Source: Leucoraja erinacea (Eukaryota). From it: DNA of 64,000 nucleotides. Under the pieces are notes generated by a model. It saw nothing but the letters and a program-made list of their open reading frames with translations. It had not been told where the DNA came from and ran no database searches. Numbering within the stretch: position 1 is the first letter of the stretch; each line of letters starts with the position of its first letter. Shown piece after piece: positions 31,051 through 56,600 of the stretch. A program made the position numbers and the translations under genes. Location: NCBI RefSeq assembly GCF_028641065.1, contig NC_073399.1:9176001-9240000 (forward strand), in the 5' to 3' direction.

Positions 31051-34000
31051 CCCCCCTCNNNNNNNNNNNNNNNNNNNNNNNNNNNNNNNNNNNNNNNNNN
31101 NNNNNNNNNNNNNNNNNNNNNNNNNNNNNNNNNNNNNNNNNNNNNNNNNNNNNNNNNNNNNNNNNNNNNNNNNNNNNNNNNNNNNNNNNNNNNNNNNNNA
31201 AAACCACCAACCGTTTTCATTCGACAAGTTTCACACAAATTATTACCTCAGGATCGATCTCTTCGGCAGTCGGGGCAGAAGAATTCTGGAAGGGAGAAGC
31301 AGAAGCTTTTCGTCTGATATTCACACTTCAATATTTATTGCCAACCACTTTCCCTCTCGTATGTCATCTTCTAACCCAACTACGACTAAACAAGCGTTTA
31401 GAGATACTGCACGAAAAATCAGGCCCTTCGGCCCACCGAGTCCCTGCCAACCCCCCCTTCGCTGTACTCTAGCACACTATTCCCCCCCCCCCCCCCCCCC
31501 CACACACGGGACAATTTACAGAAGAAAGTTAGCCGACAAACCTGTACGACTTTTGAGATGTGGGAGGAAACCGGAGCACCCGGATAAAACCCACGCTGTC
31601 CATGCGGAATTTGCGTATTCTTCTTGTGACCACAAGGGGTTTCCTCCCACATCCCACAGATGTGCAGGTTTGCAGCTGGACTGCTCTCTGTAAATTGTCC
31701 TTGGTGTGAAGGGAGTGCATGAACAAGTGGGATAATATGGAACAAGTTTGAACGGGCGATTGATTGTCGGCGGACCAGAGGACCCGTTTCGGTGCTGCAT
31801 CTTCTCCGTGGATTGTCACCTTGTCACCTCCAGATCTCTAAATTATGTCAGCATTATTCAAACACTCGTTGCGCACAGCAACAACAGAATTCCCCCTCAA
31901 ATTGGCTCCCACACAAGCTGGGGCTGATGTTCTTACCACAGGGGACGAGTAGAGGCTGCTGACCGGTGGGGCTGATGAGGTGACTGGGCTTGGCTCAGCC
32001 TTTGGGTACATGGAGTAGGTGTTCTTCTGTCTCTGCAAGGGGGAGAGAGAGTTTTCAGTGAGACGTCAGCAAAAGCAAGCAATGGCCGTCAGCCCCACAA
32101 TCTTGAACCTCCACCACCAGCCATCGACTTACGCCCACCCACACACGCCCACCCACCCACAACCGCCCACCCACCCACACCCATTTTTATTTTTAAAAGC
32201 TCTTGACTTTTCCCAAACCAAGATCTTTGCTAGAACTGTGACAATCATTTTGTCAGCAAGTTATTTGAAACTGTCATAAATGGACCATGCTTTGATCAGG
32301 CGCTTTGACATTAGACTTGGGATACAGCGGGATACGGTAGGATACTAGTGTATAGGGTGATCGGCCTTTCAGCCCACCGACTCCGCATTGACCAGCGATC
32401 ACCCCGTACACTACCACCATCCCACATACTAGGGGCAATTTACAATTTTACCGGAACCGATTAACCTACAAACCTGCACGTCTCAAAACAAAGCTCCCGT
32501 AGCCAGGATCGAATCGGGCAGGGTTCACTGGTACTGTGAGGCAGCAGCTCTACCGTCACGAGTTACTTTGGTTTGAACTACAGCACGTCTGGCCGGCTGC
32601 ATTTGTGTCAGGATTGACGCGTTAGGGAAAATCTTACAACCCGTCCACAGGATGGAACTTTGGGGGATATTTGAACATTAAAAAAAGGGGCCTAAGTATC
32701 CAAAGATGATAGATTAAGAAATATACCTGCACCTGACCCATCAAATATTCCCATAGACACAAAGCATCACATCTTGGCCACACCAATGAGAATGAAGACA
32801 ATATGGTCAGCGTTGCTAAACCGGAAAGTTCATACATTCTAGGGACAGAATTATGCCATTCCACCCATCAATTTTACTCCGCTATTCAATCATGGCTGAT
32901 CGATCTTTCCCTCTCAACCAACCCCATTCTCCTGCCTTCACCGCATAACTTCTGACAACAGTACCGATCAAGTATCTATCAATCTCTGCCTTAAAAATAT
33001 CCATTGACCAGACCTCCACAGCCACCTGTGGATTAGAATTCCACAGATTCACCACCCTCTGGCTTAAAGAAATTCCCCCCTCACTCCTGTCCAAAGGTAC
33101 GTCCTTTTATTCTGAGGCTACGGCCTAGTGGAAACCAAAGATCCTATAGCGAGCAAGATAGTCCACTCGATTACACTGGGCCCTCCTCTCCCCTCTCCCA
33201 TCAGGCAAGAGGTACTCCAGATACAGGGACAGGGACAGCCTCCAGATACAGGGACAGTTTCTTCCCAGCTGTTATCAGGCAACGGAACCATCCTACCAAC
33301 AACTAGAGAGCGGCCCTGAACTACCATCTACCTCATTGGAGACCCTTGGACTATCTTTGATCGGACTTTACTTTGCACTAAACGATATTTGTGTTATGTG
33401 CACATTGCAGACGGCTCGATTGTAAACATGTATTGTCTTTCCGCTGACTGGATAGCATGCAACAAAAGCTTTTCATTGCACCTCGGTCCACGTGACAATA
33501 AACCAGCCTCAGCTCTACCCCCCTCCCCCTCCCCCTCCCCCTCGCGGTGAGCGGTCGGACACACACCGGGACCCGTGGTCCCTGCCGCGCCGTCAACCCG
33601 CCCTGGCGGCGCCACTCACCGCTCTCTCTTTCTCTTCAGCCTCAGACTGCGACAGGGCTATGGCCAGCTGAAGTTCCTCTTCTTCCTGCAAGGCAGCTTC
33701 ATCACGCTTGGGAGGTAACTGGCAGGAGAGACCCAGTCAATAGGAGGCAGGCATTCAGAAAGCGGACGGCGGGAAATAATACAACTCCTCACGTCAGGTG
33801 TGCGCAAACCTCACCCCCTATCCCCAAACACAATTCCAGTTTGTTTAGGAGTCATAGAGCCCATCGGCCCAACTTGCCCACACCGGCCAACATGCCCCAT
33901 CTACACCAGTCCCACCTGCCTGTGAAGGGCCCATATCCCACTAAATTTGTCCCATCCATGTACCACTCTGTTTATTAAACCTTGGGATAGTCCATGCCTT

Positions 34001-37000: not shown

Positions 37001-40000
37001 CTGAACTCACAGGCCCGACGCTAGCTATCTTTATACTCTTTTATCTGTATATATTTATTGCCTATGTACTAGTTTAATTCATCCACATTGCACATATTGT
37101 TTTAACCAGTATTTTTACTACTTTGCACTCTGATTAGATGCTAAACTGCATTTCGTTGTACCTGTACTCGTATTTGTGCAATGACAATGAAGTTGAATCG
37201 AATCAAATCAAATTTTGTCACATGAGCAAAAAACATAAATTAACTCATTCACCCCAAAATAATTTCATTCACTTGGGTGAACCATTCACCAGTTTAAGGA
37301 GCACTGTACGAGCAATACCCTCCACATTAGAGACAATGTACAATTTTACCAAAGTCGATTAACCTGCAGTCTTGGAGTGTGGGAGGAAACCGGAGCGCCC
37401 GGGGAAAACCAACACGGTCACAGGGGGAGCGTACAAACTCCCTACAGACAGCACCCGCAGTCAGGATCGAACCCGGGTCTCTGGCGCTGTGAGGCAGCAG
37501 CTCTGCCGCTGCACTACTGCGCCGTCCTGTCCTCCAGAGATGCTGCTTGACCTGCTGAGTTACTCCACCATTTTGTGCCTTTTGGTGGACAAAAGGGGTC
37601 ACCGACGTCAGGCGTTTGTGTGGCAGAAAGAAGGTTAATAAGTGGGGTCTCTAAACATTCCACACCCACGTACAACTTACATGCATTCTAAATTACTATC
37701 TACACAGAGCAACCTGCATAGGTCGAACAATCAAGCCAAGTACAAACCCAGAGACCCAGTTCAATTCTGACCCTGGGTGTTGTCTGTGTGTTCAATTGGC
37801 CCGCTCTCCCCGTGACCACGTGGGTCTCCTCCCGCACCCCGAATTCATGCGGGTTTGTAGGTTAAGAATAAGGAGTAAGCCATTTAGAACGGAGACGAGG
37901 AAACACTTTTTCATAAAGCACAGAGAGTGGTGAGTCTGTGGAATTCTCTGCCTCAGAGGGCGGTGGAGGCAGGTTCTCTGGAGGCTTTCAAGAGAGAGCT
38001 AGATAGGGATCTTAAAAATAGCGGAGTCAGGGGATATGGGGAGAAGGCAGGAACGGGGTACTGATTGGGGATGATCAGCCACGATCACATTGAATGGCGG
38101 TGCTGGCTCGAAGGGCCGAATGGCCTACTCCTGCACCTATTGTCTATTGTCAATTGGCCTCTGCACGATTGCCCCTCATGTGCAGGGAGTGGATGGGAAT
38201 GTGTGATAGCATAGAGGTAGCATGAGGGGGTGATCGATGGCCGGCGTGGACTCGGTGGGCCGAAGGGCCCGTTTCCAAGCTGTATGTTTCAGTCAATCAA
38301 CAGGCAAACACTCAAACCTGGGGCAAGTTTCAATCCACATGAAACTCCAGCAGTCAGCTCTGGCCTGCAATTGTCGCCGTACTTCCCAGGAGTGAAGGTC
38401 TTACCTTTGTTTAAACACCTCCCAGACAAGGGACAATCCTGTGCACTGATAAAGCAGCAGGCACCTCATGTACATCCGTCACCTACATCTTACCCGCTGC
38501 CCCTTCAAATCAAACAAGCGGTGAAGCCGCACACATCAAGACCAAAGATGTCAGTTTCTCTGGAGAGAAGGAATGGGTGACGTTTCGGGTTGAGACCCAA
38601 AGGTCTCATTCCTTTTCTCCAGGGATGCTGCCTGCCCCGCTGAGCCACTCCAGGTTTTTGCGTCTACCTTCGGTTTAAACCAGCATCTGCAGTTCCGTCT
38701 TGCACATCAAGGCCAACGTTTACTAACTTGTTCAGCTGCTCAAAGCATGGCTCGCAAACGCGGACTTCTTTCTCGATCCCAAACTTGGGGATGGTGGAGG
38801 ACTTGGAGGAACATTTTCCACAGAAGATCTGCCCACACGCCCTGCAGTGATGCTGGGGAGAAGAACGGACAACAGCAGCAGTCAGCTCAGCTGCCCAGCC
38901 TTGTAGCTTTGCAAATGCTCCTTCTAAAGACACGCGCGACCATCTGTCGGTTAATCCCCCGTGCCAGAGCTTGTTGTTAATCATCAGTTGCCGGAGTTTA
39001 GTTTTAGTTTTGAGATACGGCGCAGCAACAGGCCCTTCCACCCATCGAGTCCGCGCCGACCAGCGGTCCCCATATACCAACCACGGGTGACAATTTACAA
39101 TTTGACCAACGCCAATTAACCTGCAAAGCCACACGCCTTTGGAATGTGGGAGGAAATTGGAGCACCCCTAGAAAACCTGGGAGAACATACAAACTCTGTA
39201 CAGACAGCCCCCTTAGTCGGGGGGGGGGTGGGCGGGGGGAACGACGACAAAAGGGGGAGCCGGCGTGGTTTGTAACTTAGATGTAACACCGTAGATGGCT
39301 GCTATTTGTATACATTGTGTATGCAGGCAGAGAATTCCTACGTATTCCTATCCCTATTGTCTGTGCGGAGTTTAAGCGGTCTCCCTGTGACCTGCGTGGG
39401 CTTTATCCGAGATCTCCAGTTTCCTCCCACACTCCAAAGACGTACAGGTTTGTAGGTTAATTGGCTTGGTATAAAATGTAAAAAAATGGTCCCTTGTGTG
39501 TGTGTGTGTGTGTGCGCAGGATAGTGCTTGTTAGTGTGCAGGGACCGCTGGTCGGCGTGGACTCGGCGGAGTGAAGGGCCTATTTTGCCACTGTATCTCC
39601 AAAGCAAACTAAAAGGTACGGTGCAAGTTGAATTTGTTGCTTGTTTGCGATGTTCTACATTCAGTACGAGCAGCGTGCGACCACCGGCTGCGTTGCCTGG
39701 TGTATTGCCTCTGATGAAGGCTCTGACCAATAAATTTCAAAGCTGGAGGACGAGCGAGGGGGGTCGGGGGTCAGGGGTCGGGGGGGGGGCAACTACCTTT
39801 CTGGTCACCACTCCAAACTGCACTCTGCACCGGTGACATTCCTCAGCGTCCACCCAATCCGGGGCCTGCAGAGGAGCAAAGAGAAAGATATATCAGCCTC
39901 CTGTACATCCTGGATCATTGTCAGTTTTCCCCCTCCATTTGGTAAATAGCTCCAGATATTTTTCTGTAAAACAGTTTTTCTGGAAAAATCGAAGGTAGAC

Positions 40001-49000: not shown

Positions 49001-52000
49001 TGGGAGAACCAGATGACTGACACAAACCTGGTTGCACCATAACCAGTCCACAACATGCTGGCTATTCAAAGGTAGAGCTAAAATATTTGGTGTTTTTTTT
49101 TTCTTTCTGAAAGGAAAAAGGCCAAACAATCAGCCCCGCTTCCAACACACTTACTGAGCATCTCCTTGCCGAATCAGGTCACAGATCTGTAGAATCGACT
49201 CCCAGTCAGTTTCAAGAAGTAACTGGCTTGTTGCTTTTTCTGTTTAGGAAGAGAAGGCAGAGTGGTTTATTGACAGGCCTGGTGGAGGCTGCGAGCTACG
49301 GCACATTCAGCAAACTGCCCGCGTTCCTCGAGTCTTTGTAAATCAGATCGCAATAGAGCTCAATAACTGGGATAGGGTCAGTGAGAGATGTTTCTCAGCC
49401 GATTTATCTGTCCAAAACAGAAAAATGAAAGCAGCTCTCGTTATTCCCCTCCCTTCAATCACATTAAACACGAGAGAGAAATGGACATGAACTTTAATGT
49501 GGTAGAGCATAATTCCGCTCCCATGTCTCATGAAGTCATCGGCTTATGGCAGCAATTTCTAGGCATCTTTGAGCTGAATCCCCAGCGGGTGAGAGACTGT
49601 ACAATGTGTTACATAGAAACATAGAAAATAGGTGCAGGAGGAGGTGATTTGGCCCATCCAGCCAGCACCGCCATTCATTGTGACCATGGCTGATCATCCA
49701 CAATCAGTAACCCATGCCTGCCTTCTCCCCATATCCCTTGATTCCGCAGGCTTGCTTTATTATTGATACAAACACAGGAGCCTAACAAACACACAGTGGC
49801 TCCAACTCGTGCCGTTTAAAGGTAGGGGTGGACGGACGAAAGGGGACACACACACACCACACACAGAACATTATTTAGACAAACAGCTAGAGGAACTCAG
49901 CGGGTCAGGCAGCATCTCTGTAGAAAAAGAATAGGTGATGTTTCAGACCTAGACCCTTCTTTACCCTCGCTCAGCTATCGATGATAGTGAGATGGAGCAC
50001 AGACTGGCCGATCGTTTCGCTAAACACCGTTGCAGCATGTCTGGAGAAAATGGATCGGTGATATTTCAGTCCGGCAATGGGTCCCAACCTATCCAGGCAC
50101 TCCAGAGATGCTAAAATGGAGAGCTAAATAACTGTAAATGCTGGTTTATACCAAAGATAAATACAAAGTGATGGAGTAACACAGCGGGTCAAGGAGAAAC
50201 TCTCTGGTGAATATGGATAGGCGAGGTTTTGGGTTGAGTGTCATTCTGACTGAGTGTGGGGTTAAGAAATTTGGAAAAGGGGTGAGGCAGGACAAACGGT
50301 GGCAGGTAATAGGTCGACACAGGGGGGGAGGTGGGGGTTGACAAGTAGATGGTTGGAACAAAGGCCAGACAGTGGATGTAAGACAGACATTTCTCCACTA
50401 AGGCAGTGAATGGTTGAAAGGTGCCTTTATTGTCACCTGCAAACACACCAAGAAATTCCTTTCTCGCATACAGTAAAATATTGCCGTACCCAAACACAAT
50501 CCCCGAATTGCAGAACATTTTAAAAGGCGGGCACAAAGTGCTGGAGTGACTCATGCGGGTCAGGCAGCATGAAACAAATACTGTGTGTCTATCTTTGGTA
50601 TGAACAGCACTTTGTGCATTTGCTTGGTCAAAAAAACAGCATCTGTACTTGCTATTGAGGGAGTTTACAAGGTTAATCCCCAGGATGGCGGGACTGTCAT
50701 ATGCTGAGAGAATGGAGCAGCTGGGCTTGTACACTCTGGAGTTTAGAGGGATGAGAGGGGATCTTATTGAAATATATAAGATTGTTAAGGGTTTGGACAC
50801 GCTCGAGACAGGAAACATGTTCCCGAATGTTGGGGGAGTGCAGAACCAGGGGCCACAGTTTAAGAATAAGGAGTAAGCCATTTATAACGGGGACGAGGAA
50901 ACACTTTTTCTCACAGAGAGTGGTGAGTCTGTGGAATTATCTGCCTCAGAGGGCGGTGGAGGCAGGTTCTCTGGATACTTTCAAGAGAGAGCTAGATAGG
51001 GCTCTTAAAAATAGCGGAGTCAGGGGATATGGGGAGAAGGCATGAACGGGGTATTGATTGGGGATGATCAGCCATGATCACATTGAATGGCGGTGCTGGC
51101 TCAAAGGGCCGAATGGCCTACTCCTGCACCTATTGTTTTCCCTCTTTTAACATTTAGAGGATATTTGGGCAGGTTGAACAGGATATGGGCCAAGCACAGG
51201 CAAGTGGGACTGGCTTAGAGAGAGGATCTGGGTTGGCATGGGCAAAGATAGACACAAAATGCTGGAGTAACTCAGCGGGTCAGGCAACATATCTGGAAAA
51301 AAGGAACAGTCATAGTCATAAAGTGATAGTGTAGTAACAGGCCCTATGGCCCAACTTGCCCACACTGGCCAACATGTCCCCAGCTACATCTGTCTAAAAG
51401 TTGGGATAGTCCCAGTTGGGATAGTCACAGCCTCAAATACTTCCTCTGGCAGCTTGTTCCATACACCCACCACCCTTCCTGTTAAAGCTTTTCCCCTTCA
51501 CCTGAAACGCATGTCCTCGATTAATCTACTCTGGGTAAGAGATTGTGTGCATCTACCAGATCTATTCCTCTCATGATTTCATACATAGGTGGCGTTTCAG
51601 GTGGAGACCCTTCTTCAGGTCGAAAGTCAGGGGAGAGGGAAACAAGAGTCAGACACAAAGTGGTGGAGTGACTCAGCAGGTCAGGCAGCAGGAAAAGATA
51701 TGTGTGTGTGTGTTTCTGTCAGTGTGTGTGTGTCTGTGTGTTTCTGTCTGCGTGTTTCTGTCTGTGTGTTTCTGTGTCTGTGTGTGTGTTTCTGTGTCTG
51801 TGTGTGTGTTTCCGTCTGTCTGTGTCTACCTTTGGTCTTTGTGTCTTTCTCTGTGTTTAAAACAGCATTTGCAGTTCCCGTTTAGCACTTAGAAGAGAGG
51901 GGTTTTGAGCTGAGTCACTCCAGCATGTTTGTGTCTAACGTCGGTGTAAAGCCCGCATCTGCAGTTGCCCTTCTCGCAGGCTTGATGGGGCGGGTTGCCG

Positions 52001-52190
52001 GGCTACTGGAGACCGGGGCTCCGGGGCCCAGAGTCAACCACAGCCTTGGGGCCTCCGGCCTCTAATCTCCGCTCCCCAAATCCAACGACGGCTTTCCGAG
52101 CCCCCTCACCCCTCTCTCAAACCTCAGGGGATGGGGAAGGGGAAGCTTCTTACCGAGGAGCCGGTCGAACGGGCCACCGCCTTTCCCCAT
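22876..52190 (-). CDS. HGS: Hepatocyte growth factor-regulated tyrosine kinase substrate (Hrs, ESCRT-0), 21 coding exons, about 755 aa
   Basis: VHS, FYVE (WVD...RKHHCRACG...VRVC), double-sided UIM, PSAP motif, GAT/coiled coil, P/Q-rich tail and C-terminal clathrin box; all introns GT-AG; one apparent +1 frameshift in exon 18. Confidence 0.97.
23709..23860. repeat. Minisatellite, 4 x 37 bp
   Basis: Unit gaggacccgccagctggcaccgggtctctggtgctgt. Confidence 0.9.
23947..24042 (-). CDS. HGS: HGS exon 20
   Basis: [32 protein letters not shown]. Confidence 0.92.
24249..24350 (-). CDS. HGS: HGS exon 19
   Basis: [34 protein letters not shown]. Confidence 0.92.
24445..24875. repeat. G/A-rich polypurine low-complexity tract
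   Basis: Direct reading. Confidence 0.9.
24969..25103 (-). CDS. HGS: HGS exon 18 (135 nt as assembled, 1 nt too many)
   Basis: (DP)[43 protein letters not shown]; cag/gtaag. Confidence 0.88.
25845..26022 (-). CDS. HGS: HGS exon 17
   Basis: [59 protein letters not shown]. Confidence 0.94.
26270..26700 (-). mobile_element. CR1-like LINE 3' fragment
   Basis: RT-end motifs and tail; similar copies at about 16480-16800, 17375-17715, 37865-38150, 47800-48220, 60740-61120. Confidence 0.75.
26963..26990 (+). ncRNA. Minimal hammerhead-ribozyme-like core in Penelope terminal repeat
   Basis: CTGAAGA-A-GGGTC-TC-GACCT-GAAACGTC: CUGANGA box, stem II, GAAA, palindromic ACGU, UC. Confidence 0.55.
27194..27334 (-). 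CDS. HGS: HGS exon 16
   Basis: [47 protein letters not shown]. Confidence 0.96.
28597..28743. repeat. Minisatellite, ~19-bp unit, 7-8 copies
   Basis: Unit gtgctctactactgcccgc. Confidence 0.85.
28756..28928 (-). CDS. HGS: HGS exon 15 (coiled coil)
   Basis: [57 protein letters not shown]. Confidence 0.96.
29350..29563 (-). CDS. HGS: HGS exon 14 (GAT-N)
   Basis: [71 protein letters not shown]. Confidence 0.95.
30581..30724 (-). CDS. HGS: HGS exon 13 (PSAP TSG101-binding motif)
   Basis: [48 protein letters not shown]. Confidence 0.94.
31059..31199. other. Assembly gap (141 N) in HGS intron 12, after a poly-C run
   Basis: N run. Confidence 0.99.
31247..31285 (-). CDS. HGS: HGS exon 12 (39-nt micro-exon)
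   Basis: [13 protein letters not shown]; cag/gtaat. Confidence 0.9.
31937..32032 (-). CDS. HGS: HGS exon 11
   Basis: [32 protein letters not shown]. Confidence 0.94.
33620..33718 (-). CDS. HGS: HGS exon 10 (UIM)
   Basis: [33 protein letters not shown]. Confidence 0.95.
34417..34501 (-). CDS. HGS: HGS exon 9
   Basis: [28 protein letters not shown]. Confidence 0.93.
35461..35649. mobile_element. PIF/Harbinger-type MITE
   Basis: TIRs GGGCCTGTCCCACTTAC / GTAAGTGGGACAGGCCC; TAA on both flanks. Confidence 0.8.
36344..37306. mobile_element. MITE with ~16-bp TIRs (CAGTGCTCCTTAAACT), interrupted by the Rex1 LINE
   Basis: aagtgctccttaaact ... agtttaaggagcactg; uninterrupted relative at about 59428-59649. 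Confidence 0.7.
36458..37213 (+). mobile_element. 5'-truncated Rex1/Babar-type LINE (RT C-terminal region plus 3' UTR and (GAATC)n tail)
   Basis: [19 protein letters not shown]...[14 protein letters not shown]...[11 protein letters not shown]...[21 protein letters not shown]...RLRNSFF; tttgtc on both sides. Confidence 0.85.
38728..38852 (-). CDS. HGS: HGS exon 8 (FYVE)
   Basis: [41 protein letters not shown]. Confidence 0.96.
39000..39612. mobile_element. Two HE1-like SINE copies, opposite orientations
   Basis: Minus copy about 39000-39215, plus copy about 39355-39612. Confidence 0.65.
39797..39865 (-). CDS. HGS: HGS exon 7 (FYVE)
   Basis: [23 protein letters not shown]. Confidence 0.95.
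40534..40586 (-). CDS. HGS: HGS exon 6
   Basis: [18 protein letters not shown]. Confidence 0.93.
41389..41512 (-). CDS. HGS: HGS exon 5 (VHS)
   Basis: [41 protein letters not shown]. Confidence 0.95.
44635..44939. mobile_element. PIF/Harbinger-type MITE, same family, inserted in a SINE
   Basis: tta|tgggcctgtcccac ... gggacagaccca. Confidence 0.7.
45355..45382 (-). ncRNA. Minimal hammerhead-ribozyme-like core
   Basis: Minus strand CTGAAGAAGGGCCTCGACCCGAAACGTC. Confidence 0.45.
45600..46170 (-). mobile_element. CR1-like LINE 3' fragment
   Basis: [58 protein letters not shown]. Confidence 0.82.
46309..46401 (-). CDS. HGS: HGS exon 4 (VHS)
   Basis: [31 protein letters not shown]. Confidence 0.95.
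46667..46862. mobile_element. PIF/Harbinger-type MITE, same family
   Basis: taa|agggcctgtcccac ... gtgggacaggtcct. Confidence 0.72.
47551..47626 (-). CDS. HGS: HGS exon 3 (VHS)
   Basis: [25 protein letters not shown]. Confidence 0.95.
49155..49239 (-). CDS. HGS: HGS exon 2 (VHS)
   Basis: [29 protein letters not shown]. Confidence 0.95.
50650..51135 (+). mobile_element. CR1-like LINE 3' fragment
   Basis: [45 protein letters not shown]...[12 protein letters not shown]. Confidence 0.82.
51700..51830. repeat. Degenerate (TG)n microsatellite
   Basis: Direct reading. Confidence 0.85.
52154..52190 (-). CDS. HGS: HGS exon 1 ([12 protein letters not shown])
   Basis: 37 nt, donor gtaag. Confidence 0.92.
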
Positions 52191-52481: not shown

Positions 52482-52495
52482 GTTGCCGGGGTAAC
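52482..52495. promoter_or_regulatory. RFX X-box, copy 1
   Basis: GTTGCC-GG-GGTAAC fits GTNRCC(N0-3)RGYAAC. Confidence 0.6.
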
Positions 52496-52510
52496 TGAGG
52501 CCTGTGCGGC

Positions 52511-53428
52511 CCAAAGATCCTATAGCGGAGGGGCATAGGGGGGAGACATTGTAGTGGGGGTGGAGGCGAGGGAGTGCCGGTGGGGAGGGTTGGGGAGGGT
52601 GGTGGTGGGGAGGGTTGGGTGGGGGGGGGAAGGGGGTGTGGTGTGGGGGGGGGGGGGGTGGGAGGGGGGTGGGGAAGGGCGTGGGTGGGGGGGGGGGGGG
52701 GGGGGTGGGGAGGGTGGTGGGGGGGGAAAGGGGGGGGGGGGGGGGGTGGGTGAAGGGTAGTGGGTGGTGAGGCGAGGGAATGCCGGTTGTGGGGGAGAGT
52801 TAGGAGGTGGGATAGGGCCTAGTGTGTGTGATGTTGCGGGGAGGTTTACAATGTTTCTTATTTAATGCCCCTTGTCTAGTCTGAAATAAAGTTCATCATT
52901 GGATATAAAAATCAGCAGAAATATAATTGTGTGTGTGTTATATGATTACATACATTTATATCACATTCATGTATGTGTGTTTATAAACATTTTATTCTTT
53001 AACAAGAATTAACAGAAGTATGAACTAACAGCATTATGAAACTAACCCTATATCACGCACAAAAACTGTTCCCCCGCAATGTTAATCACCCTGCGAGTCG
53101 GGTCGTCCGGTTACTACAAAATCAACTCAAACACTGCTTGTGAGCCATTTAAAAAGAAATGATTTAAAAGACATTAAAAAAGACAATTACCAGAGTCAAA
53201 TTTTATTCTTGACAAGAAGTATAAACTGACAGAATTGTGAATCTAACCCTATATCACACACACAAACTGTTGCCCCGCAACGTTGATTACACTGCGAGTA
53301 GGGTCGGGTCGGTTCCGGTTACTAAAATGGACGGGGGAAAATGCCCAGGATCCCCTCCGTAGCTACTCCACGTCAGCCCATTGCATTTCGCAGGCGTGGG
53401 CTATCTTGCTCCGCTATAGGGTCTTTGG
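52511..53428. mobile_element. Non-autonomous TIR element (~918 bp) flanked by a 28-30-bp direct repeat
   Basis: TIR CCAAAGATCCTATAGCGGAG (52511-52530) vs CTCCGCTATAGGGTCTTTGG (53409-53428), 19/20 match; identical flanks at 52483-52510 and 53429-53456; internal duplicated ~125-bp unit. Confidence 0.8.
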
Positions 53429-53441
53429 TTGCCGGGGTAAC
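53428..53441. promoter_or_regulatory. RFX X-box, copy 2
   Basis: Identical GTTGCCGGGGTAAC, about 170 nt upstream of the ARL16 coding start position. Confidence 0.6.
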
Positions 53442-53613
53442 TGAGGCCTGTGCGGCCTAGTGACTCGGAGCTGCCTCACTCTAGCTCGCCGTGCGGACGG
53501 ACGGACATCGGCATCCCGCCTGGGAATCGCTCCTAGCATCGCCGACCCCCGTAGCCTCACCTCCCTCCCTCCCTCTCGCAGTCACGGCCTCGGCCTCAAC
53601 CTCAACCCCAGCC

Positions 53614-53674
53614 CCGGGCCTGCTGCTCGGGGCGACGGCGGTGGGGAAAACCCTGCTGCTCAAGACGCTGCACA
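53614..53674 (+). CDS. ARL16: ARL16 exon 1 coding part (P-loop GATAVGKT)
   Basis: PGLLLGATAVGKTLLLKTLH followed by U12 donor ATATCCTT at 53675; CCG where Met is expected. Confidence 0.8.
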
Positions 53675-56600
53675 ATATCCTTTAGGCTGCCAGTCAATCA
53701 ATGTGGTGCAAATCAAAGATACTCCTCTTATAATCTTTGGTGCAAATGAATAAGGGAAATGGAAGAGAACTAAGCATCGAGCATCAGGGAGCGAGTGGTT
53801 GCATACTTGATCTTTCTTGGTTTCTTGGTCCTCCAAAATATTCCAAATGGAATTTAACTGGAGGTGGTGAAGGGAGGGCTTAAGCCAGAAAGAGTTATTG
53901 CTGGAGAAACTCAGCGGGTGAGGCAGCACGTATGGAGCGAAGGAAATAGGCAAAGTTTCGGAACGAAACGTTGCCTATTTCCTTCGTTCCATAGATGCTG
54001 CCTCACCCGCTGAGTTTCACCAGCAATTTTGTCTACTTGCAAACACAATTCATTGCCGTTGCCACCACCACACAAGTTGGGCAGTGTAAGAATTCCAAAG
54101 TTGAAACATTGCTTAGTTTAGTTTATTACTGTCACGTGTACCGAGGTACAGTGAAAAGCTTTTTTGTTGCCTGCTATCCAGTCAGCGGAAAGATTGTACA
54201 TGGTTACAATCGAGCCATCCACGGTGTACAGAAGATAGACACAAAATGATGGAGTAACTCGGCGGGTCAGGCAACATCTCTGGAGAAAAAGGATGGGCGA
54301 TGTATCGGGTTGGGACCCTTCTTCAAACTGAAAAAGGGTCCCAATCTGAAACGTCACCTATCCACGTTTCAAAAGATGCTGGCACACACAAAGCTGGAGA
54401 AACTCAGCGGGTGCAGCAGCATCTATGGAGCAAAGGAAAAAGGCAACGTTTCGGGCCGAAACCCTTCTTCAAAAGATGCTGCATGCTCCGCTGGGTTACT
54501 CTAGCACTTTGTGTCTAGCTTTGCTATAAACCACGCCTGCAGTTTCCACTAAAGGCTATATTATTGTATTAATTTTCACTTGCTCAATTTGACCAATATA
54601 TTTAAATAGTGACAAAAAATGCTTATTCTTTTTATGGAGAATGTTTTTTGTTTTTTTATTATATTATCTATTGAGTAATGCGTTTCCAAACCTGTTATGC
54701 TGCTGCAAAAAGTAAGAATGTTATTGTTACGTTTCAGGACAAATGACAATAAAACACTGAAGATGGACGCAAAAACGAGTAACTCAGCAGGTCTCAACCC
54801 AAAACGTCACCTATTCCTTTTCTCCAGAGATGCTGCCTGACCCCGCTGAGTTACTCCAGCATTTTGTGTCCATCTTCGGTGTAAACCAGCATCAGCAGTT
54901 CCTTCCTGACCATAAAACATGAATTCCTAATTGGCTAGATTGTCGCTTGATTTTAATTAATGCCACTTCAGTAAAATACATTAAGGATCTGGAGTGTAAA
55001 TTGATGGTGATCATATATTAACCAACACTTGCACCTCCTCCAACTTCATCTATTGTATCCCCTGTTCCAGGTGAGACCAAGCCCAGGCTCAGCAATCGTT
55101 TCGCTGAACACCTCCGCTCAGTCTGCCTAAACCTACCAGATCTCCCGGTTTCTAAACACCCGCTCCCATTCACACACTGACCTTTCTGTCCTGGGCCTCC
55201 TCCATTGTCAGAGTGAGGCCCAGCGCAAATTGGAGGAACAGCACATCATATTTCGCTTGGGCAGCTTACACCCCAACGGTATGAACATTGACTTCTCTAG
55301 CTTCAAGTACCCCTTGCTTTCCCGCTCTCACCATCCATCCACCCCTTTCCAGTTCCCCGACCAATGTGACTGCCCTCATTACCATTTTATCTCTGCTTTG
55401 TTGTTACCTTCTCCTAGCGAACAATGATCTATTCTACATTTACCCTTGATCTCCATCCCCTTTGTCTCAGTTTCACACCTTACAATTCCTTATCTCTGTA
55501 TCTCCCTCTCCCCTCTGACTCTCAGTCTGAAGAAGGGTCTCGACCTGAAACGTAACCCATTCCTTCTATCCAGAGATACTGCCTGTCCCGCTGAATTAAT
55601 CCAGCATTTTGTATCTATTTTCAATTTTTTGAATTGTCTTGTACTTTTGGGTTCTTGAACAATGTAAACAGATGAGCTTGAAAGGAGTGACTGGTGATCT
55701 CGACGAAACCCCACCTACTCTCCCAACGGTATGCTCAACGCCTTCCGTAACAAACTTGCTTTAAATCTCTATGTTTGGGTCTGGGTTTATTATCGTCACG
55801 TGTAATGAGGTGCTGTGTAAAGTTTTGTTTTGCCGCTCAGTACAGTTTTCGTTTAGATTTTTTTTCAGTTCAGTTTAGTTTATTGCCATGTGCCACGAGG
55901 TACAGTGAAAAGCTTTTGTTGCGTGCTAACCAGTCAGCGTAAAGACAATACATGATTACAATCGAGCCATAGATACATGATATGGGAATGTGTAAGAGAG
56001 AACTGTAGATGCTAGTTTAAATCGAAAGTAAACACAAAATGCTGGAGTAACTCAGCGGGTGAAGCAGCATCGCTGGAGAGAAGGATGTTTTTGGGTCGAG
56101 ACCCTTCTTCAGACTGATGTCAGGGGAGGGGGTGGGACAAAGATAGAATGTAGGCAGAGACAGTGAGACTAGCAAGGGCCATCTGAAGTTATGATGATAT
56201 GGGAATAATGTTTAGTACAAGGTAAAGCCAGTAATGTCTGATCAAATATTGTCCGAGGGTCACCAATGAGGTAGATAGTAGATCAGGACCGCTCTCTGGT
56301 TGTGGTAGGATGGTTCAGTTGCCTGATTAACAGCTGGGAAGAAACCGTCCTCGAATCTGGAGGTGTGCGTTTTCACACTTCTGTACCTTTTGTTCGACGG
56401 GAGGGGGGAGAAGAAGAAGGAGTGGTCGGGGGTGCGACTGGTCCTTGGTTATGCTGCTGGCTGGTGGGGAAAAATGCAAGAGTTACCGCCTTCAGTTCGG
56501 CATCGATGCCACATTTAATCTGCTTTGCCCGCAGGTGGGAACCAACTTAACCGACATCACCATCAACAAGAGGAGAATTACGATTCGAGAACTGGGAGGC

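Follow-up and report, generated by a model that had tools for sequence, protein, structure and literature searches.

Introduction

hAT elements are described as carrying terminal inverted repeats (TIRs) of 10-25 bp and target-site duplications (TSDs) of 8 bp (PMC3942097). TSDs of 8 bp are likewise given for P elements and P-type MITEs (PMC1562414, PMC7776569), and TSDs of 4-5 bp for Ginger elements (PMC2836005). In the 64,000-nt stretch of Leucoraja erinacea DNA analysed here (hereafter the window), a TIR element stands between two identical and much longer direct repeats. A sequence-only reading put these repeats at 28-30 bp and left two options: a DNA-transposon family with long TSDs, or a single aberrant insertion or repair event. 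In this study, we asked what the exact repeat is, whether the locus is real, and which of the two options the other copies of the family favour.

Definition of the element and its flanking repeat

The element, its TIRs, and the flanking repeat were placed as follows.

52482-52511, + strand: left copy of the 30-bp direct repeat (exact repeat and inverted-arm scan)
52512-53427, no strand assigned: TIR element of 916 bp, non-autonomous, member of a very high-copy family
52512-52530, + strand: left TIR, 19 bp
53409-53427, - strand: right TIR, 19 bp; the family end is fixed at 53427
53428-53457, + strand: right copy of the 30-bp direct repeat (exact repeat; also contig alignments)

The two 30-mers (52482-52511 and 53428-53457) are identical at 30 of 30 positions and lie flush with intact element termini. 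The inverted arms 52511-52530 and 53409-53428 are complementary at 19 of 20 positions. The proposal of a TIR element with one-mismatch arms between long identical flanks was thus borne out. When the ends are read as CAAAG...CTTTG, the TIRs match at 18 of 19 positions and, among lengths of 2-40 nt, the sole flanking direct repeat is 30 nt; with CCAAAG...CTTTGG ends the flanking direct repeat is 28 nt. No shorter duplication is nested in the 30-bp repeat over the same range of lengths with CAAAG...CTTTG ends, and the earlier remark that the element has no 8-bp TSD holds. The TIR pattern has three matches in 64 kb at up to three mismatches and none in 100 shuffles. No flanking repeat accompanies any of the best 25 other CAAAG..CTTTG pairs listed for the window, and the exact-repeat scan showed none either.

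The choice between 28 and 30 bp was decided by other copies of the family. In sequencing run X6, 32 contigs match the element as far as 53427 and beyond it carry long, unrelated flanks, which places the right family end at the CTTTG at 53427. The second piece of evidence is a remnant elsewhere in the window.

33136-33181, - strand: decayed solo remnant of the right end of the family, 46 nt, in a LINE-like repeat inside HGS

At this remnant, CAAAG is preceded by a C that is part of the host LINE-like repeat; where that repeat is uninterrupted, its copies continue past the C. The contig ends at 53427 and the host-derived C together indicate that the termini are CAAAG and the repeat is 30 bp, and they rule out the 28-bp reading (CCAAAG...CTTTGG). 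Of the 28-30 bp first given, only the upper value therefore stands. No left end and no duplication were found at the 33136 remnant. A likeness between the flank of the remnant and the 30-mer region was explained by a 20-bp deletion in the LINE-like repeat.

Interior and coding content

The following features were found inside the element.

52551-52589 and 52757-52795, + strand: two 39-nt look-alike units, 206 bp apart
52579-52752: G-rich tract inside the element, enclosed by the two look-alike units
52990-53119, + strand: internal unit 1, with motifs CCCTAT, CCCCGCAA, and CCGGTT
53201-53327, + strand: internal unit 2 (88% identity with unit 1)

Units 1 and 2 share 106 of 120 aligned bases, and both the G-rich tract and the duplicated unit of about 125 bp noticed earlier were recovered. 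In the right arm CCCTAT and CCCCGCAA read forward, whereas the left arm has them in inverted orientation; both are likely transposase-binding sites. By the P-type subterminal-repeat test, short motifs are inverted across both arms, but no single matched pair stands at fixed distances. A period of about 201-210 bp, close to the nucleosome repeat length, underlies both element arms (52551-53327).

The longest ATG frame in the element has 35 codons. Across the element, the remnant, and their surroundings, none of the 39 stop-to-stop frames matched a transposase family in Pfam, and the single Pfam match among them was the UIM of HGS; the description of the element as non-coding was correct. An Rfam search returned nothing inside the element and 11 weak matches below the gathering score, all in flanking hairpins. 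The element is MITE-like in being short (916 bp), non-coding, and bounded by TIRs (18/19) at both ends. High copy number and a sharp family boundary, also MITE-like, were seen over the right two-thirds of the element.

Other copies of the family

Contigs aligned to 52780-53880, which takes in the right two-thirds of the element, were collected from four of 23 listed runs, one per coded organism. Between 3,817 and 7,892 contigs aligned per run in all four runs, counts that include a second repeat at 53814-53857. Summed over 16 element bins, depth exceeded that of the flank by a factor of 2,900-47,600, a ratio that is not a copy number. The element family is very abundant in all four organisms, and the element is thus a member of a real, abundant interspersed family.

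The copies are not uniform. In X1, the majority of the depth differs from the window copy at 22 of the 24 element-internal rows listed, which puts the drift of the window copy at about 3% or more. In other copies, joints were seen that step back 204-210 nt and indicate that these copies have more internal units. Before 53260, 22-50 contigs in all four runs end loosely, entering from a different interior. These loose ends mark a subfamily with another interior and offer a lead to a longer or autonomous relative. The last bases of this alternative interior before 53260 resemble a splice acceptor.

Searches for the ends and the internal motif were also carried out outside the skate data. The metagenome scan gave eight loci with no likeness beyond the pattern, the GTDB scans 0 and 10 loci and the viral scans three and 0 loci, in both cases chance matches only. 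One metagenome contig (L006, 2962-2994) carries a 33-nt hairpin that starts with CAAAG, ends with CTTTG, and includes the 19-nt left TIR. The contig is unrelated and the hairpin was treated as a chance match, not as a relative.

Reality of the insertion

A long flanking repeat could be an assembly mis-join, or its two copies could have pre-dated the element. The contigs bear on both alternatives. One contig of X6 (53403-53838) and one of X18 (53405-53839) start 23-25 nt inside the element, cross the 30-mer, and extend into the ARL16 flank, and the aligned piece of X1 begins 6 nt inside the element. The flanks of the runs differ from the window by 3 to 11 letters in about 400. The insertion is common to at least three taxa, the window's own and at least two others. 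Since contigs from other taxa cross the right junction, the insertion is shared and a mis-join is unlikely.

One X15 contig has its first base at 53428, which is what two different neighbours of the 30-mer would produce, assuming words of 31 letters. Extra depth was seen in the bin 53446-53482 in three of four runs, amounting to 33-53 if confined to the repeat, and would fit further 30-mer-bearing contigs. The contig start and the extra depth are consistent with two real copies of the 30-mer, and both copies abut the termini to the base. In favour of an artefact, the aligned stretch begins at 52780, so that the right junction is covered and the left junction lies outside it. No empty site was seen among the contigs of the four runs over 52780-53880, and the view that the repeat arose by duplication on insertion accordingly rests on its flush fit to both termini. 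Weighing these points, we regard a mis-join or a pre-existing pair of repeats as very improbable.

Promoter setting

The element lies in the shared promoter of HGS and ARL16, a GC- and CpG-rich stretch between two divergent genes. The features around it are given below.

52154-52190, - strand: likely first coding exon of HGS (from translation; gene named from downstream exons)
53617-53674, + strand: conserved first coding exon of ARL16 (P-loop), without an in-frame ATG
53675-55669, + strand: first intron of ARL16, AT-AC type (minor spliceosome)
52482-52495, second copy 53428-53441: predicted RFX X-box-like motif, the first 14 bases of the 30-mer

HGS was identified by its VHS and FYVE exons and a match to PDB 3f1i. 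For ARL16, splicing out 53675-55669 restores K-M-S-L-K-G. The best matches of the searched region are skate proteins (93% and 89%), and their later exons match the window at 100%, which marks the host as a skate. The start of ARL16 is less plain. The P-loop exon (53485-53674) has 18 of 21 residues in common with the manta-ray protein. The database skate proteins begin in exon 2, without the P-loop, and those of the manta ray and two sharks begin with MGLGLLLG or MCLLLG. At 53584 stands an in-frame ACG whose context is good, and at 53620 a CTG. It is possible that ARL16 uses a non-AUG start or a hidden upstream exon. A start supplied by the element was rejected on inspection, as the in-frame ATG at 53341 hits a stop just past the repeat and no convincing splice path was found.

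The X-box consensus is given as RTNRCC N1-3 RGYAAC (PMC2375033), and ARL16 is described as working in Golgi-to-cilium traffic (PMC9250359). A scan with this consensus found four X-box-like sites in 64 kb, two of which are the two 30-mer copies. The first intron of HGS also has an X-box-like site, at 51994. The insertion has likely duplicated a putative RFX site, predicted from the motif, next to a ciliary gene. With an X-box-like motif left on each side, the ARL16 side of the promoter would have been kept intact, and the insertion may for this reason have been better tolerated.

Other repeats were noted near these genes. The first ARL16 intron contains the short, very high-copy repeat at 53814-53857 and a hairpin repeat at 53924-54000, with 37-bp arms and many relatives in the window. 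Regions 37947-38143 and 50914-51138 share several exact matches of 33-40 nt at a constant offset of 12,993 bp, which suggests either a local duplication or a pair of closely similar LINE-like copies.

Target-site bias and the origin of the 30 bp

The flanks of the family were represented by the majority consensus of the 32 right-end flanks of X6 and by the single remnant at 33136; among the loose ends listed for the other three runs, none lies at 53427. The first flank letter is probably biased against G, because flanks that start with G align one base further. The consensus and the flank of the remnant agree at eight of positions 2-10 and at three of positions 11-30. An agreement of 8/9 at positions 2-10 is reached by 16 of 127,601 window positions, or by 0.14% in any 9-base window. 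The chance of the observed agreement is about 1e-4 to 1e-3, with the test window and motif chosen after the flanks had been seen. The consensus matches the continuation of the LINE-like repeat at 1-5 of 20 positions in all four LINE copies; it does not follow the LINE onward and thus does not reflect one amplified site. The agreement within the consensus (0.39) exceeds that of a simulation with no bias (P of 0.02-0.03 at 40% GC and about 0.001 at 44%). Taken together, the match to the remnant and the agreement above the null point to a family target bias about ten bases long.

This bias was compared with known target motifs. Against the 8-bp hobo motif GTTTAAAC, taken from a published table (PMC2577343), the consensus and the remnant each score 6/8, for a background of 0.5%. 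Against the P core, they score 3/8 and 4/8, respectively. Mirror symmetry of the consensus is 2/3 pairs at length 8, also at 9 and 13, and 0/3 at length 30.

At the window copy itself, the two junctions differ. The left-junction 8-mer (52504-52511) scores 5/8 on the palindrome of consensus and remnant, the best in the repeat and a score reached by 10 of 542 local-island positions, and 6/8 on the P core. The right-junction 8-mer scores 2/8 on both the palindrome and the P core. The right flank agrees with the family consensus at 3/9 positions, and it begins with G-T-T; the remnant shares this start, and the consensus has the same letters from position 2 on.

We hold with moderate confidence that this is a hAT- or P-like non-autonomous family with 8-bp targets, and that the 30 bp here go back to one event that placed the right end 22 bp too far upstream. 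The flanks of other copies suggest the 8-bp geometry of the family, and the left end would then have used 52504-52511 as its proper target. The family would be moved by a transposase of hAT or P type that would usually duplicate 8 bp. At this locus, the left end would sit at its proper 8-bp target, and the right end would have been joined 22 bp upstream of its normal position (30 = 8 + 22), the extra 22 bp presumably stemming from a second transposase cut nearby. Such a cut could have come about by two routes. In a hybrid-element insertion, the copy on one chromatid would contribute its right end, which would reinsert 22 bp upstream on the sister chromatid or homologue; the outcome would be an intact element with the intervening DNA present on both sides. 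In an uncoupled insertion, the ends would attack sites two helical turns further apart than usual, with the same product. Short flanking duplications have reportedly been found with P. For P and Ac, forms of alternative transposition are described in which flanking DNA is duplicated (PMC3744419, PMC2775673), and P elements are described as favouring promoters and nearby sites (PMC7776569). Several points weigh on the other side of this reading. No 8-bp duplication was seen, the flanks being read on one side per copy, and a family with long duplications of variable length would also be expected to lack a mirror at 21-30. In addition, the sum 8 + 22 is in line with the helical-turn rule of IS481EU, a hint at something recurrent and not accidental.

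The latter point leads to the alternative that long duplications are regular in this family. They could be about 30 bp as a rule, or fall into discrete classes of 8, about 19, and about 30 bp through looping of the target between the active sites. A perfect repeat flush with intact termini and with no nested short TSD fits this alternative, as does the precedent of the stepped duplications of IS481EU and the IS1202 group, 22 bp being about two turns. The version with discrete classes is also compatible with the 8-bp-type bias of the other flanks. Against regular long duplications, the flank bias does not extend beyond about position 10 and lacks a mirror at 21-30, the right flank of the window copy fits the family bias poorly, and the termini differ from the TNT..AYA of IS481EU. 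Moreover, no animal DNA-transposon family with 28-30-bp TSDs was found in the literature searched, from which Repbase, Dfam, and most subscription papers were outside; for the same reason, the family may already have a library name. We consider regular long duplications possible but doubtful.

A further alternative is that a short duplication was made at insertion and that the extra bases came from host repair without a second cut, by template switching or interrupted gap repair. Double-strand breaks at donor sites are described as being repaired by homologous recombination or end joining (PMC7776569), and the poor score of the right-junction 8-mer is what would be expected if the transposase had not chosen the site. 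However, the termini are intact to the base, without filler, deletion, or microhomology scar, and G-T-T, the start of the remnant's flank and present in the consensus from position 2, is retained at the beginning of the right flank. We judge this alternative to be improbable.

Of the two options of the sequence-only reading, the indirect target-site evidence favours the aberrant single event and disfavours the long-TSD family, for which only a low degree of confidence is retained. Most likely, a real element and a real 30-bp repeat belong to an abundant skate family, an ordinary family with an unusual insertion.

Implications

If the repeat results from a single slip, the element is an ordinary non-autonomous transposon whose insertion in a bidirectional promoter is old and shared. 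If long or stepped duplications were instead regular, the family would be an exception to the rule that eukaryotic superfamilies each have a fixed TSD length, and it would escape transposon finders that demand short TSDs. It would also offer thousands of natural insertions for testing the origin of the 10-bp steps in TSD length, which the authors of the IS481EU report leave open (PMC10045372). A vertebrate family with thousands of copies and target cuts of about 30 bp, or of 8/19/30 bp, would be the first animal counterpart of the helical-turn behaviour of IS481EU and IS1202, a proposal that we put forward tentatively and think unlikely to hold. In that case the behaviour would have arisen in a hAT- or P-type enzyme, which could copy whole transcription-factor sites, here the RFX X-box, to both sides of each insertion.

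Comparison with known systems

The CAAAG end fits Y-A-R-N-G, which we take to be the terminal pattern of hAT elements. With hAT elements of the hobo/Hermes type the element also shares a 19-bp TIR that falls within the 10-25-bp range, repeated subterminal motifs, and the target bias of its family, whose flanks score 6/8 twice on the hobo motif GTTTAAAC and, at the remnant, 5/6 on the Hermes motif GTGNNCAC. It differs from them in the 30-bp instead of 8-bp duplication of the window copy, in its internal units of about 205 bp and G-rich arm, and in having no linked transposase.

The same CAAAG end fits CANRG, presumably the terminal pattern of P-type elements. The P-like ends suggested earlier are therefore a fair resemblance and not a unique one, as the hAT pattern fits too and the consensus favours hobo (6/8) over P (3/8). 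Like P-type MITEs and the P-like element of zebrafish (THAP9), the element has short TIRs and internal inverted motifs. It lies in a promoter, the setting that P is described as preferring (PMC7776569), and its left-junction 8-mer scores 6/8 on the P core. In contrast to P elements, the duplication is 30 and not 8 bp, the family consensus reaches only 3/8 on the P core, and no THAP or transposase sequence was found in the 39 frames around the element and the remnant. Since the window copy has no 8-bp TSD and no transposase is linked to it, we did not file the element under hAT or P.

IS481EU elements are reported with duplications of about 4, 15, and 25 bp, even within one family (PMC10045372), and the prokaryotic IS1202 group with duplications of 5-6, 15-17, and 24-29 bp, about 10 bp apart (PMC10132070). 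Both are described as DDE-type elements with TIRs and with long duplications stepped by about one helical turn (PMC10045372, PMC10132070). Their termini are TNT..AYA or TGT..ACA, whereas those of the element are CAAAG..CTTTG, unlike IS481EU, and its 30 bp exceed the lengths reported for them. Reports of IS481EU are confined to parabasalid protists (PMC10045372). Primate retro-DNAs are described as DNA-transposon sequences with a longer-than-normal TSD, as here (PMC11195612). As characterised in that source, they have no TIRs, a TT/AAAA site, and often a polyA tail; the element is tailless, lies at a GC-rich site, and has a TIR at either end.

The last comparison is with hybrid-element insertion in P and alternative transposition in Ac/Ds. 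The duplications described for Ac (PMC3744419, PMC2775673) range from 8 kb to 5 Mb, whereas the extra DNA here is 22 bp. Reasoning from the mechanism, the likeness lies in the product, which in these systems would likewise be an intact element between direct copies of its flank, with no nested short TSD.
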